Virus record (IMG/VR): IMGVR_UViG_2675903289_000016
Reading direction: 5' to 3' (one strand)
Length of the DNA: 4,481 nucleotides
Source: a virus
Taxonomy: Duplodnaviria; Heunggongvirae; Uroviricota; Caudoviricetes
Positions 1 through 4,247 of the stretch are shown here, piece after piece (positions within the stretch are counted from its first letter, which is position 1; every line of letters starts with the position of its first letter). The notes beneath the pieces were generated by a model. It was not told the origin of the DNA and searched no databases. It saw only the letters and a list, made by a program, of their open reading frames with translations. Position numbers and translations under genes: made by a program.

Positions 1-11
1 CTACTGTCCAT
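1..11 (-). CDS. Probable start of a further minus-strand gene running off the window (only M-D-S visible)
   Basis: On the minus strand, AAGGAG (plus 19-24) lies 7 nt upstream of the ATG at 11..9, in a different frame from ORF 1-198. Same initiation-region pattern as gam (AATAAGGAGAAAGATAATGG vs AATAAGGAAAAACAAAATGG). Confidence 0.3.
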
Positions 12-198
12 TATCTTTCTCCTTATTCAGTCTTCTGCGGCATTCGGCACAGTCATCAGGGCTTTCAAATGTATCCGGCTCGCGATTATGAGCCAGATAT
101 AACCACCGCCCACATATACTGATATTTTCACCTGTTTTAAAAAAATGATGCTTCTTAGCCATCAATGGCCGCGCCCATCCAGCGGGTAGACTATTCAT
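1..198 (-). CDS. Small Cys/His-containing hypothetical protein (65 aa)
   Basis: ATG at 196-198 with a GGAGGA RBS 8 nt upstream, lying inside the 3' end of the preceding gene; stop TAG at 1-3. Has C29, C50, C53 and H17/H18/H37 (HH…C…H…CxxC-like spacing). Confidence 0.5.
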   Translation of the reverse strand: MNSLPAGWARPLMAKKHHFFKTGENISICGRWLYLAHNREPDTFESPDDCAECRRRLNKEKDNGQ

Positions 199-565
199 TA
201 GCTTTATCCTCCATGCTGGACAGAATCATATGTATTAATGTCGGGCGTGGAGATATACGCATTTCATTAAGCGTCTGAAGGGCAGCAACAGCAGCCATTT
301 TATCGGTGCCTCTGGCAATTTCTGCAAGAGAATGCACAATCCATAACGGACTTAACGCTACGGCTGAATCCAGAATCATGTCATCCATAATAATTTCTGG
401 CACATCCCGTTTGTCACATTCTTTATCCATAAAAGAAACGATTTTTTCCGCATCTTCCGGTTTCATACCTCCGGCGATAAGAATTTTACGATATTCATAA
501 GACGTTCTTAATTCAATGCTCATATTCATCTCCTGTAACTCTGACAAGGACGTGATTTTTCTCAT
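191..565 (-). CDS. Hypothetical protein (124 aa; alternative start gives 110 aa)
   Basis: ATG at 563-565 is coupled to the upstream stop. An internal ATG at 521-523 has a stronger AGGAG RBS 6 nt upstream. Stop TAG at 191-193. About 40% GC by hand count. No HTH or catalytic motif recognised. Confidence 0.5.
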   Translation of the reverse strand: MRKITSLSELQEMNMSIELRTSYEYRKILIAGGMKPEDAEKIVSFMDKECDKRDVPEIIMDDMILDSAVALSPLWIVHSLAEIARGTDKMAAVAALQTLNEMRISPRPTLIHMILSSMEDKANE

Positions 566-756
566 TTACGCCTNTTACGCCTCCCGGAAATACGAATGTA
601 TATACCGATGAGAAAATCCATAATAAACAGGAAGAGCGACATCCTGATAAAGAACCAAATGTCAGGCATAATGGACAGGTTTCCTGTAATCGCAAATATA
701 AAACCAGTCCCCCACACTGGAACGATAATTGCGAAAAATACAAGTCTCTTTATCAT
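562..756 (-). CDS. Small membrane protein (64 aa), two predicted transmembrane helices and a polybasic C-terminal tail
   Basis: ATG at 754-756 with a GGGAG RBS. Two hydrophobic stretches (LVFFAIIVPVWGTGFIFAI and IWFFIRMSLFLFIMDFLIGIYI) followed by GRR(K/N)RRK. The ambiguous base at 574 falls in this tail. Stop TGA at 562-564 overlaps the next ATG. Confidence 0.5.
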   Translation of the reverse strand: MIKRLVFFAIIVPVWGTGFIFAITGNLSIMPDIWFFIRMSLFLFIMDFLIGIYIRISGRRXRRK

Positions 757-1304
757 GGCGTTAACTCCCGTAATACAGCGTCCTCGGCGGTCCGTCGACG
801 GTAATAAACAGCGTGAGCAGAATGTTCAGATATGCCAAACTTTTCGCCAATTTCCCGGAATGACAGACGGCGAGGGTAATCGGAATCCCGTAGTGCACGT
901 ATAAGACGAACATCCTCATCAGATATACGTGTGCCGGGGCGTAACTCACCGCACTTTGTTAATCCGGCACCAATCATTCCTGCGCGGCACCTGACAGAGT
1001 CTTTATTACGTCCGAGATAATCCCCCATTTGCTGGCAGGTCATTGTCCGGGCATTTTTTCGGATAAATTTATCTTCATCAGGTGTAAATCGCGGTCGTTT
1101 ATATTTCAGCAACTCCGGGTATGTACTGCGCAATACGCCAGTCCGGTTATATACGGCCCAGACACTTCTTTTTATTCTGGCGGCAATATCCTTAACCGGG
1201 GTGGAGGAATAAAGCGCAATCAGCAGCGCATCTTCTTCAGGTGTCCACGGGCGGACATGAGCAGGTGCACGACCTTTTCGCCCCATGGGTTGTAATTTCA
1301 TCAT
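753..1304 (-). CDS. Putative DNA-binding regulator (183 aa) with three HTH-like repeats; C-terminal repeat resembles the Mor/C activator HTH
   Basis: Starts ATG ATG (1302-1304, 1299-1301) after GGGGGTGA. Three repeats begin WTPEEDALLIALY, FTPDEDKFIRKNA and ISDEDVRLIRALR. The last continues RRLSFREIGEKFGISEHSAHAVYYRRR, which matches the Mu Mor pattern LIRDLR…SELTTRYGVTFNTVYKAIRRMRR as I recall it. Stop TGA at 753-755 overlaps the next ATG. Confidence 0.55.
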   Translation of the reverse strand: MMKLQPMGRKGRAPAHVRPWTPEEDALLIALYSSTPVKDIAARIKRSVWAVYNRTGVLRSTYPELLKYKRPRFTPDEDKFIRKNARTMTCQQMGDYLGRNKDSVRCRAGMIGAGLTKCGELRPGTRISDEDVRLIRALRDSDYPRRLSFREIGEKFGISEHSAHAVYYRRRTAEDAVLRELTP

Positions 1305-1307
1305 GCA

Positions 1308-1823
1308 TCACCCCCTGACTCGCTTTTCAGCAGCATAAAACTCATCAGACAGAATTTCGGTCATTTTCTGTTTTGCGGGTTTTACGCCACACTCAAGGTA
1401 AATCACATCGTCAACGCAGAACCACTTCACAGGGCCAAACAGGATTGCCGAGAAATCAATGCCCAGCCAGAACAACAGGGCATCGGTCCTAGCATACGTG
1501 ACGGGCGAATATTCACGCCACAGACTGTTAAGTTCGTCAGAGGCAGCGCGCAGGGCTTTGGGAATACGAGATGTGCGCGGCGTGCAGCTCCAGCCATTCG
1601 ACGCAGTTGGTTTTCGCCATAAGTCGCGATGAAAAGGATATTTGTCATCCGTAAAACGCAGCCCCTTAAAACAAAAACCACTGATACTGAATTCAAATAC
1701 CGACCGGCACTCAACATTCAGCACGGCCTCAAGGCGTTTTGCCTCATCCTTAACTTTCTGGCAGTCCTGCTGGTATTTTTGCCACGCAGCCAGCGCGGAA
1801 GGGTTTGATGTTTTAAAGAACAT
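1308..1823 (-). CDS. Hypothetical protein (171 aa); sits where GemA lies relative to Mor in Mu, but the sequence is not recognised
   Basis: ATG at 1821-1823 with a strong GGAGGTG RBS 5 nt upstream; stop TGA at 1308-1310, 3 nt before the next start. About 55% GC. Confidence 0.6.
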   Translation of the reverse strand: MFFKTSNPSALAAWQKYQQDCQKVKDEAKRLEAVLNVECRSVFEFSISGFCFKGLRFTDDKYPFHRDLWRKPTASNGWSCTPRTSRIPKALRAASDELNSLWREYSPVTYARTDALLFWLGIDFSAILFGPVKWFCVDDVIYLECGVKPAKQKMTEILSDEFYAAEKRVRG

Positions 1824-2102: not shown

Positions 2103-2594
2103 NNNNNNNNNNNNNNNNNNNNNNNNNNNNNNNNNNNNNNNNNNNNNNNNNNNNNNNNNNNNNNNNNNNNNNNNNNNNNNNNNNNNNNNNNNNNNNNNNN
2201 NNNNNNNNNNNNNNNNNNNNNNNNNNNNNNNNNNNNNNNNNNNNNNNNNNNNNNNNNNNNNNNNNNNNNNNNNNNNNNNNNNNNNNNNNNNNNNNNNNNN
2301 NNNNNNNNNNNNNNNNNNNNNNNNNNNNNNNNNNNNNNNNNNNNNNNNNNNNNNNNNNNNNNNNNNNNNNNNNNNNNNNNNNNNNNNNNNNNNNNNNNNN
2401 NNNNNNNNNNNNNNNNNNNNNNNNNNNNNNNNNNNNNNNNNNNNNNNNNNNNNNNNNNNNNNNNNNNNNNNNNNNNNNNNNNNNNNNNNNNNNNNNNNNN
2501 NNNNNNNNNNNNNNNNNNNNNNNNNNNNNNNNNNNNNNNNNNNNNNNNNNNNNNNNNNNNNNNNNNNNNNNNNNNNNNNNNNNNNNNNNNNNNN
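2103..2594. other. Run of 492 N (assembly gap or masked sequence)
   Basis: Uninterrupted n from 2103 to 2594. The length is a multiple of 3. The six-frame ORFs 2072-2671 and 2086-2643 exist only because N translates to X. Confidence 0.99.
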
Positions 2595-2600
2595 GCGGTG

Positions 2601-3131
2601 TTATTTATTCAGTCCGGCGTCCTGTTCAAAAGGCTCGACATAAAAACTTTCAGCGCCTTTATTCACCTTGATACCGGCAATGCCTTTCACAGCATCCGGC
2701 TCCGCCAGGACGGCTTCCTTGTTCACTTCCTCTTTCGTGCGGATGAAACGCTCAAGCCCCATACGGCGCAGCATTTCAATCACACCTTCCACATCACGGC
2801 TGACGCTGCATGATGGCGTTCCCAGCCGCCATGACACCGTTCCGGTGGTCAGATTGGCTGTTTTGGTTTTGCCGCCGTTCGTCAGCTCATCACGGTTGGT
2901 TTTGCACCAGTCCTGAATCCCTTTAAAAAGCACTTTGATTTGCTTTTTAAGATTTTCAATCTGCGGCGTATAACGGGCGGTGATTTCTGCCACTTCGTCA
3001 TTCATCGCCGTTTCCAGGCGCAGCGCCTCTCGCTGAATATCTCCCAGGGTGCGGATATCACGGCTGACTTCTTCCCGGGTCTGCGGTGCCGCCTCGGCTG
3101 CGGCCTTTAATTTTGTAATGCGTTTAGCCAT
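2601..3131 (-). CDS. gam: Mu-type Gam, host-nuclease inhibitor / dsDNA-end-binding protein (176 aa)
   Basis: ATG at 3129-3131 with an AAGGA RBS about 10 nt upstream; stop TAA at 2601-2603. The translation carries the motifs I recall from phage Mu Gam: N-terminal MAK, NRDELTNGGKxKTANLxTGxVSWR, RFxRTKxExNKEAxLxEP and PFEQxAG near the C-terminus, at the same length (Mu Gam is about 174 aa). Recalled, not searched. Confidence 0.85.
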   Translation of the reverse strand: MAKRITKLKAAAEAAPQTREEVSRDIRTLGDIQREALRLETAMNDEVAEITARYTPQIENLKKQIKVLFKGIQDWCKTNRDELTNGGKTKTANLTTGTVSWRLGTPSCSVSRDVEGVIEMLRRMGLERFIRTKEEVNKEAVLAEPDAVKGIAGIKVNKGAESFYVEPFEQDAGLNK

Positions 3132-3440: not shown

Positions 3441-3713
3441 TTACCCCTGTTGATTAAATTCATTACCGTTAATAACCCCGGAAGCCATGCCTCTGTCTTT
3501 CATGAATGCACTGGCTTTCATTGCCACAAACTCTGCGAAGTTTCTGCTTTCTGCCAGCATAACCACCCCAAAAATCATGGCGGGTCCATTATCTTTCTTC
3601 TTTATTCCGGTTGAACGTATATCCAGACTTACCCCTCTGTGCGTGCTGCCATCAGAGTTTTTGCAGATAACATCTTCCTTGTATTCGAAAATAATGCGTA
3701 CGACTTTACTCAT
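3441..3713 (-). CDS. Small hypothetical protein (90 aa), paralog A of a tandem pair
   Basis: ATG at 3711-3713 preceded by GAGGA; stop TAA at 3441-3443. N-terminus MSKVVRIIFEY and C-terminal AEFVAMKASAF segment match the downstream gene. About 43% GC. Confidence 0.6.
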   Translation of the reverse strand: MSKVVRIIFEYKEDVICKNSDGSTHRGVSLDIRSTGIKKKDNGPAMIFGVVMLAESRNFAEFVAMKASAFMKDRGMASGVINGNEFNQQG

Positions 3714-3991
3714 CCTCTGGTCCTCGTTCTGTTTGGATAACTGACCCGGCGTCTAACCTCACGGCAGAACCGAATCATGGCATTAAAGGCTTCTTCCTCC
3801 GTCACCGCTTCCGGTATCCCCGGAACCAGTAACTGCTCCTGTTCATCACGTCCATGACGCGCCATAACCTCAATCACATGCCGTACCGTGGCAGGCTTTC
3901 CGGCAACTATCGGCAATGCACCTTCCGGCAGGACGTAACCAAACTCAATAAGACCACTCGACCACGCCCATGCAATGAGATTTTTTTTCAC
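3710..3991 (-). CDS. Hypothetical protein (93 aa), GTG start
   Basis: Minus-strand ORF whose first codon is GTG (plus 3989-3991 = cac), preceded by GGGAGGTG. Codons 2-4 form an A8 run (plus T8 at 3981-3988). Stop TGA at 3710-3712 overlaps the next start (ATGA). About 53% GC. Confidence 0.5.
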   Translation of the reverse strand: MKKNLIAWAWSSGLIEFGYVLPEGALPIVAGKPATVRHVIEVMARHGRDEQEQLLVPGIPEAVTEEEAFNAMIRFCREVRRRVSYPNRTRTRG

Positions 3992-3992
3992 C

Positions 3993-4247
3993 TCACACCT
4001 CCCAGTAAACCGTGCAGCCGCTGATGCGGGTGGCCTTCACACGGCGGCGCAGGCCGTTGGTCTGTATGGTGATTTCAATTTCACCGGTTCCCTGCACGTT
4101 GCCTACCGGCGGCGTGGTTTTCAGTGCAAAACGTTGCGGATAGCGCTTACTGCGTTCCAGTACCGCACCGGCAAGTTCGGTCAGACGGCGCGCGCTGTTC
4201 AGGGAGTCGAATAAATTCATTTTGTTACCGCAGGATTGCATATTCAT
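3993..4247 (-). CDS. Hypothetical protein (about 84 aa; the longest ORF reaches 4259)
   Basis: Minus-strand ORF with stop TGA at 3993-3995. A GAGGTG Shine-Dalgarno sits inside the first codons of the longest ORF, so the start is more likely the ATG at 4245-4247 (or 4239-4241) than 4257-4259. About 55% GC. Confidence 0.5.
   Translation of the reverse strand: MNMQSCGNKMNLFDSLNSARRLTELAGAVLERSKRYPQRFALKTTPPVGNVQGTGEIEITIQTNGLRRRVKATRISGCTVYWEV

Follow-up and report, generated by a model that had tools for sequence, protein, structure and literature searches.

A predicted membrane hairpin encoded in the early region of Escherichia coli Mu-like prophages, and a nine-base repeat at a likely scaffold join

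Introduction

Does a short reading frame whose last codons appear twice, on either side of an ambiguous base, encode a genuine phage protein, and what might such a protein do in the membrane? The question is raised by an ORF at 562-756 on the minus strand of the window (the whole 4,481-nucleotide stretch of viral DNA analysed here, IMG/VR record IMGVR_UViG_2675903289_000016), given in the ORF listing as an ATG-initiated frame of 64 codons, one of them translated as X. The original prediction had read this frame as a small two-helix membrane protein with a polybasic tail encoded by a 9-bp tandem duplication of uncertain or variable copy number, and had noted that the architecture is shared with class II holins and with small membrane-disrupting effectors, leaving the function open.

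Results

Genomic setting of the ORF

All sizeable ORFs of the window lie on the minus strand and were matched to the early region of a Mu-like prophage. The genes relevant to this work are, in the direction of transcription:

3993-4247, minus strand: Kil-like protein (phrog_2679)
3710-3991, minus strand: member of a "host nuclease inhibitor" PHROG
2601-3131, minus strand: Gam (Pfam Phage_Mu_Gam, 5e-42)
1308-1823, minus strand: homologue of Mu gp12
753-1304, minus strand: upstream gene, Myb/HTH-like DNA-binding protein of 183 aa (Pfam and PHROG matches, phrog_323)
562-756, minus strand: gene of the small, predicted two-helix membrane protein (64 codons in the window, 61 in every relative)
191-523, minus strand: downstream gene, phrog_1988 protein of 110 aa (PHROG match 1.9e-43; RefSeq start)
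1-198, minus strand: protein of 65 aa

The left 2.1 kb of the window was detected by megablast in 232 of 5,426 complete E. coli genomes, with the best match (99.6%) in E. coli DLI.5a, in which the region is annotated as a Mu-type prophage with a repressor/ner/transposase end and a com/mom end. The membrane-protein gene was present in 109 of the 5,426 genomes, a carriage of ~2% or more that includes many O157:H7 and other STEC strains. It sits between gam and gemA, with strand and position kept, in all the examined prophages that have it, among them DLI.5a (locus L001), loci L005 and L010-L014, and RM13322, CI5 and STEC299. Its neighbors are homologues of Mu kil, gam, gp12 and gemA, and it shares operon, strand and position with the semi-essential early genes of Mu (kil, gam, gp11-gp15 and gemA). 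The Shigella-type loci L010 and L011 lack the 183-aa gene, and in them a gp12 of 209 aa overlaps the start of the membrane-protein gene; L012 and L013, which still carry the membrane-protein gene, have lost most of both gp12 and the 183-aa gene.

The best sigma-70 match in the DLI.5a locus (10/12) is at 27841-27813, upstream of the ner-like gene, and the first strong minus-strand terminator at 19204-19181, just past gemA; scanning this locus from the ner-like gene to gemA detected nothing comparable to either between them. Based on synteny with Mu and on these consensus scans, the membrane-protein gene would be carried on the early transcript, by analogy with Mu, and very probably belongs to the early operon of the prophage. 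A promoter of its own, as expected of a moron, was also considered and rejected, with no minus-strand promoter-like site upstream of the gene and promoter-like counts at chance level.

The gene that follows had been taken in the original prediction as a 124-aa frame at 191-565, which is probably 14 codons too long. The phrog_1988 match (1.9e-43) aligns from residue 15 of that reading, and both RefSeq and the PHROG alignment place the start at M15 (window position 523), with a GGAG 6 nt upstream.

The duplicated 3' end

The window text reads TTACGCCT-N-TTACGCCT at 566-582. No other 8-mer/1-nt/8-mer repeat occurs in the window, and at any one position such a repeat has a probability of 1.5e-5 of arising by chance; the one found is therefore no chance match. 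The duplication described in the original prediction is thus present in the window, but its second copy was absent from all relatives, and the feature is best recorded as follows:

566-574, no strand assigned: nine extra positions (TTACGCCT plus N), with the duplicate 8-mer at 575-582; absent from all relatives

All 3,989 determined bases of the window were identical to DLI.5a apart from these nine inserted positions. The left part aligned over 2093/2102 columns, with all 9 differences being gap columns, and the right part was identical over 1887/1887, so that the extra positions appear as a clean 9-column gap against DLI.5a. A 112-nt probe with two copies of the repeat matched 110 E. coli records, and among the 60 of these listed, the last two being partial matches (query 55-112), the full-length rows spanned 103 nt, the length expected of one copy. 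One copy, and no N, was also found in 12/12 IMG/VR contigs carrying the gene. At the protein level, 16/16 clusters ended in GRRK or GKHK, and in a collection of ~15 billion proteins the 61-aa form occurred on 654 contigs, while an exact match to the 64-aa form, whether with K, N or X, was absent. Judged by the sequences compared, the native tail is RISGRRK or RITGKHK, and the predicted ending GRR(K/N)RRK is no property of the family, because the relatives have a single copy and the clusters end in GRRK or GKHK.

Two features of the window point to how the extra positions arose. The only isolated N falls exactly at the repeat junction, and a run of 492 N stands for 393 bases in DLI.5a; because the length of this gap differs from the true one, the window clearly derives from a scaffolded draft in which gap lengths were estimated. 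The duplication is likely an assembly artefact of scaffolding, in which two contig ends overlapping by 8 bases would have been abutted with a one-N placeholder and left unmerged. Some scaffolders mark negative gaps by a single N. Negative scaffold gaps have been described, with flanking contigs whose overlap is too short for merging (PMC3158087).

We also weighed the reading that the duplication is real, either as a recent in-frame tandem duplication or as a slippage-prone variable repeat that extends the tail from GRRK to GRRKRRK, with the N as a low-quality or mixed base. The reading frame and the stop codon both survive the repeat, the string is obtained exactly, with N as T or C, when TTTACGCCT or TTACGCCTC is duplicated in tandem, and small indels do occur in the family, as allele P0011 carries a different in-frame insertion of three codons (HWF after M46). 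Against it, no second example was found in the 60 listed of the 110 matching E. coli records, the 12 IMG/VR contigs, the 16 clusters or the ~15 billion proteins, and the lone N stands at the repeat junction in a source that also holds a 492-N estimated gap. Two copies of a 9-mer do not make a slippage-prone array, and Tandem Repeats Finder reported none in the window. A real duplication is thus unlikely. Copy-number variation of the 9-mer was sought among the relatives and a single copy was found in all examined; given this and the negative Tandem Repeats Finder result, a variable-copy, contingency-type repeat was rejected. What holds of the uncertain or variable copy number originally suggested is the uncertainty of the assembly and not variability of the repeat. 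With an assembly artefact as the preferred reading, the 64-aa protein should not spread into annotation.

Translation, conservation and distribution of the membrane-protein gene

The signals for translation of the 61-codon gene could be read directly from the window:

757-769, minus strand: ribosome binding site GGGAG, 8 nt upstream of the ATG (756-754)

The ATG of the gene overlaps the stop codon of the 183-aa gene (ATGA at 756-753), to which it is translationally coupled. A 61-aa CDS is annotated at the matching place in DLI.5a, FORC_069, RM13322, CI5 and STEC299, and this length is constant across alleles down to 75% identity. Non-synonymous changes were significantly under-represented, with pairwise dN/dS values of 0.15-0.48 (binomial P of 0.0002-0.007 against neutrality), and the gene is clearly under purifying selection. 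Together, the ribosome binding site and ATGA overlap, the constant 61-aa length and the dN/dS values indicate that the ORF at 562-756 is almost certainly a real gene. Its product in the window is, save for the three extra codons, identical to WP_000595949 ("hypothetical protein", E. coli/Shigella), and the gene is therefore one already annotated, of a narrow uncharacterised family. Neither WP_000595949 nor WP_000595947 was named in any paper retrieved by literature searches, which also yielded no study of an early membrane protein in E. coli Mu-like prophages.

Searches with the membrane protein gave no match in Pfam or PHROGs (E-value limit of 0.1), NCBIfam (limit of 10) or PADLOC, and none by PDB sequence profile or by Foldseek against BFVD. 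A word-indexed search of 5.8 billion proteins returned only E. coli and Shigella proteins with at least 75% identity, plus frameshift variants, and an exhaustive profile search of 1.84 billion representatives returned its own cluster, the frameshifted P0017 and P0018, a low-complexity protein of 89 aa. A tblastn search of 50,697 phage records gave a single hit, to a Mu-like insertion within the record of an Stx phage. As far as these sequence searches reach, the family is confined to Mu-like prophages of E. coli and Shigella.

Phage Mu itself has no homologue of the membrane protein. The Mu slot after gp12 is occupied by gp13, a Cys-rich soluble protein, as opposed to the membrane protein found here; gp13 and gp14 were examined as candidate homologues and found unrelated by inspection, and gp19 was discarded with an hhalign probability of 0.05. 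The only transmembrane proteins of Mu are gp19, gp20, gp23 and gp25, none of them encoded in the early region (PMC9239132).

The mosaic nature of this slot, which in L004 (another Mu-like prophage) and in Mu holds a different cassette with Cys-rich gp13-like and gp14-like genes, is what one would expect if the membrane-protein gene were a dispensable passenger of a variable gp12-gemA cassette, or a mere membrane tether or partner for the 110-aa and 65-aa proteins. Frameshifted copies of the gene (P0016, P0017 and L024) would fit a passenger, and wherever the membrane-protein gene was present in the loci examined, the genes of 110 aa and 64/65 aa came next, as a tether would suggest. The passenger reading is countered by the clear purifying selection and by the invariance of helix 2 across alleles, described below. 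As for the tether, phrog_1988 homologues are also found in SfMu and in Yersinia Mu-like phages, and in SfMu, the only one inspected, no transmembrane ORF of at least 30 aa was called upstream of the homologue, which is instead preceded by a Cys-rich gp13 gene. This argues that the pairing is not obligatory, and a functional pairing with the phrog_1988 gene was rejected on the same SfMu observation. We regard both the passenger and the tether as improbable.

Anatomy and predicted topology of the 61-aa protein

The native 61-aa product is MIKRLVFFAIIVPVWGTGFIFAITGNLSIMPDIWFFIRMSLFLFIMDFLIGIYIRISGRRK. Kyte-Doolittle hydropathy in 19-residue windows peaked at 2.38 (centre at residue 14) and at 2.02 (centre at residue 45), both above the membrane threshold of 1.6, and AlphaFold2, supplied with the family alignment, modelled helices at residues 2-27 and 31-59 with a mean pLDDT of 73.7, highest (89) over residues 41-50. 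These results bear out the small two-helix membrane protein with a basic C-terminus that had been proposed from the window sequence. The predicted segments are:

676-753, minus strand: predicted transmembrane helix 1, residues ~2-27, with core L5-G25 after K3 and R4 (hydropathy and AlphaFold2)
589-666, minus strand: predicted transmembrane helix 2, residues ~31-56, followed by the basic tail (AlphaFold2 and invariant columns)

The apparent free energy of insertion was -0.41 kcal/mol for L5-I23 of helix 1, and a crude estimate for helix 2, which carries R38 and D47, was +2.1 kcal/mol. Positive charges are found at both ends only (K3 and R4; R55, R59, R60 and K61), with D32 in the loop, and applying the positive-inside rule to this layout would place both ends in the cytoplasm. 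From hydropathy, charge counting and a model of moderate confidence (pLDDT of 74), the protein is predicted to form an N-in/C-in hairpin in the inner membrane with a periplasmic loop of ~5 residues, and would lie almost wholly within the bilayer with little of it exposed.

The centre of helix 1 (residues 14-17) varies freely between alleles. The segment W34-M46 of helix 2 is invariant, R38 included, and codons 34-46 are near-invariant at the nucleotide level too. An embedded RNA element was considered as the cause of this codon invariance and rejected, with no Rfam match and a fold z-score of -0.6. Residues of the C-terminal part co-vary as two sets, D47/F48/G51/S57/R59/R60 and N47/L48/D51/T57/K59/H60, so that an acidic residue is kept at either 47 or 51. 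The native tail has seven residues and a net charge of +3 to +4.

Lysis genes of the prophage and the holin question

The original prediction had recommended a search for lysis genes elsewhere in the prophage, and these were found after Mor in relatives. Near-identical relatives of the window, which itself ends before this point, carry a complete, holin-less lysis cassette of Mu type ~2 kb downstream of the membrane-protein gene. It comprises a lysozyme with the motif E-x8-D-x5-T and an N-terminal SAR-like segment (MPKLPAPLRKK-LIALVLAGAGTFTIAT, with RKK preceding the segment), followed by Rz/Rz1-type (spanin) genes and a DUF2730 protein. From the membrane-protein gene to the lysozyme gene the distance is about 1.9 kb and five genes, that of the Mor activator included. 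The earlier observation that the next gene shows no endolysin motif is correct but irrelevant, as the lysis cassette lies further downstream.

Mu lysis needs no holin and relies on this very set of a SAR lysozyme, spanins and a DUF2730 protein, gp25, the "releasin" (Chamblee et al., PMC9239132). According to the same authors, all experimentally confirmed holins are late-transcribed, and the Mu membrane proteins gp19 and gp20, which are not late, were shown not to be holins (PMC9239132). Two transmembrane domains in N-in/C-in orientation, as in class II holins, are found in the 61-aa protein by prediction only, and neither late transcription near an endolysin nor membership in a holin family was found. 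The early position, the releasin cassette of the relatives, the lack of a dual start (M1 is the only Met before M30), a strongly hydrophobic and not SAR-like helix 1 and the short tail together indicate that this protein is, in all likelihood, not the lysis holin of the phage. The class II holin architecture did not hold as a lead, given the early operon, a lysis cassette located elsewhere and no holin-family match.

A broader version of the idea, in which the protein oligomerises in the inner membrane as a class II holin or pinholin-like pore former or as a small depolarising toxin, draws on several resemblances. Like the pinholin S68 of phage 21, the protein is small, with two predicted transmembrane helices, both ends probably cytoplasmic and a short basic C-terminus; the polar or charged residues R38, S40, D/N47 and D/G51 of the invariant helix 2 could line a pore, and these prophages encode a SAR-type endolysin, a class that usually has a pinholin as its partner (PMC9239132). 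Unlike those proteins, it is encoded in an early operon, upstream of the lysozyme gene and separated from it by ~1.9 kb and five genes, Mor among them, in a prophage that has a DUF2730 protein, the releasin that Mu uses in place of a holin, and it lacks a dual start, a SAR-like first helix and a holin-family sequence match, its native charged tail being only seven residues long. A collapse of the proton motive force that early would presumably harm phage replication. Taken together, pore formation or depolarisation is quite improbable.

Cleavage of helix 1 as a Sec signal peptide, to leave a mature single-pass protein of ~36-39 residues oriented N-out/C-in, is very improbable: the N-terminus does show an n-region/h-region layout (MIKR followed by LVFFAIIVPVW) and small residues at a possible -1 position (A/S22, G25) with I20 or I23 at -3, but no AXA-type site is conserved, the hydrophobic stretch of ~17-21 residues (L5-G25) exceeds typical signal-peptide h-regions and is typical of a membrane anchor, and AlphaFold2 models a continuous helix over residues 2-27 packed on helix 2.

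Discussion

The explanation that best accounts for these observations jointly, to which we assign a probability of roughly 55%, is that a real 61-aa hairpin encoded in the early operon, extended in the window by an artefactual duplication, has an intramembrane role and is not a holin that times lysis. The eye-catching duplicated polybasic tail is best explained as a scaffold-join artefact and its importance is small as it stands; early regions of prophages encode many small membrane proteins of this uncharacterised sort. What modest value the gene has lies in its carriage, in the purifying selection acting on it, in the lack of an early-region membrane protein in Mu and in a size suited to simple tests.

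Under this explanation, the early promoter (Pe) would transcribe the gene right after induction or infection, the protein would be translated by coupling to the upstream gene, and the invariant helix 2 (W34-M46 with R38, and the acidic residue at 47 or 51) may bind a host inner-membrane protein. Action within the membrane is suggested because the protein is probably early and, as predicted, almost entirely membrane-buried, and because helix 2 is its most constrained part. Binding of a host protein is favored over a pore because the phage would suffer if the membrane potential collapsed early. The outcome could be a block to the entry of superinfecting phage DNA, resembling that of T4 Imm, or some other envelope-takeover function in lytic growth.

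T4 Imm-type proteins are small early inner-membrane superinfection-immunity proteins that block DNA entry. The 61-aa protein is like them in being small, almost entirely membrane-embedded by prediction, probably early, accessory and lineage-specific, and unlike T4 Imm in having no sequence similarity to it by Pfam, PHROG or PDB; homology to Imm or to any Sie protein was likewise not detected in Pfam, PHROGs or an HMM search of the 1.84 billion representatives. Superinfection exclusion specifically is put forward as the favored single role, but only tentatively, by analogy with these proteins. Doubtful, in our view, is the wider proposal that the 61-aa hairpin founds a new family of early intramembrane effectors of transposable phages that bind a host machine through helix 2. 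Were it true, such effectors might exclude superinfecting phages or counter membrane-based defence.

Conservation within the membrane-protein gene

Comparison of eight distinct alleles of the membrane-protein gene delimited one segment almost free of nucleotide variation.

Window 619-657, minus strand: invariant block of 39 nt, codons 34-46 of the membrane-protein gene

Across these alleles the block carries no nucleotide variation except a single R38M change, while 34 variable sites lie elsewhere in the gene. With approximately 6.7 synonymous sites in codons 34-46, about 3.4 changes were expected, which gives a P of approximately 0.01-0.03. The allele of L012, the locus of a relative, is composite: its 5' half belongs to one type and its 3' half to a different one, and the crossover falls inside the block. 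No Rfam match was obtained for these codons, and their RNA fold was not unusual (z = -0.6).

Some database members, namely P0016, P0017 and the copy in locus L024 (around 5708-5806), are frameshifted versions of the membrane-protein gene, exemplified by the middle segment GGWFYICDYRKPVHDARY. Rather than true divergent homologues, they represent sequencing errors or else copies in decay.

Neighboring genes and the gp12-gemA slot

The original prediction read the next gene as 191-565, encoding 124 aa; a 110-aa product starting at M15 (window 191-523) is the more likely form. A GGAG motif lies 6 nt upstream of this start at 523, the PHROG alignment of the 124-aa reading begins only from residue 15, and the RefSeq annotation of this gene is the shorter, 110-aa form. 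The end of the 110-aa gene is overlapped by the start of the following one.

Window 1-198, minus strand: gene for a protein of 65 aa (phrog_2358) that has a Cys at residue 29 and a CxxC motif at residues 51-54

The 65-aa protein may bind metal.

Mu-like prophages of E. coli differ in what they carry between gp12 and gemA, so that this slot is mosaic (L004 3250-4007; L010 875-1504; L012 1380-1496). In one type, genes for a 110-aa protein, a Mu gp13-like and a gp14-like protein replace the membrane-protein cassette; in other types the 183-aa Myb/HTH gene is absent or gp12 is truncated.

The related prophage of E. coli DLI.5a

L001 9082-29136: Mu-like prophage of DLI.5a, inserted in bglJ
L001 16949-18644: Mu-type holin-less lysis cassette, downstream of Mor
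L001 19181-19204, minus strand: strong terminator-like hairpin between gemA and mor

Locus L001 holds the DLI.5a prophage, with bglJ annotated in two parts, one on each side. Window positions 2103-2594 are 492 N, against 393 bases at L001 22094-22486 in this otherwise identical prophage; this disagreement in length indicates a scaffold gap of estimated length. Masked by the N run are the gp11-like gene in its 5' part and the spacer as far as the gam stop.

In the lysis cassette, the lysozyme has a SAR-like N-terminus with RKK ahead of it; the other members are Rz/Rz1-like genes, a TraR/DksA-like gene and a DUF2730 'releasin'. Mor is directly followed by the lysozyme gene, whereas in Mu the C gene and gp18-20, without equivalents in L001, lie between. 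Beyond the DUF2730 gene, the prophage retains no more than tail-fibre fragments, an invertase with a frameshift, and com/mom; because head genes and most tail genes are missing there, the prophage appears defective.

The hairpin has a 9-bp stem, AAATCCCGC...GCGGGATTT, followed by TTATTTT. Given its position between gemA and mor, the early transcript of the L001 lineage may end ahead of mor. The early terminator of Mu, in contrast to this candidate, is located after mor.
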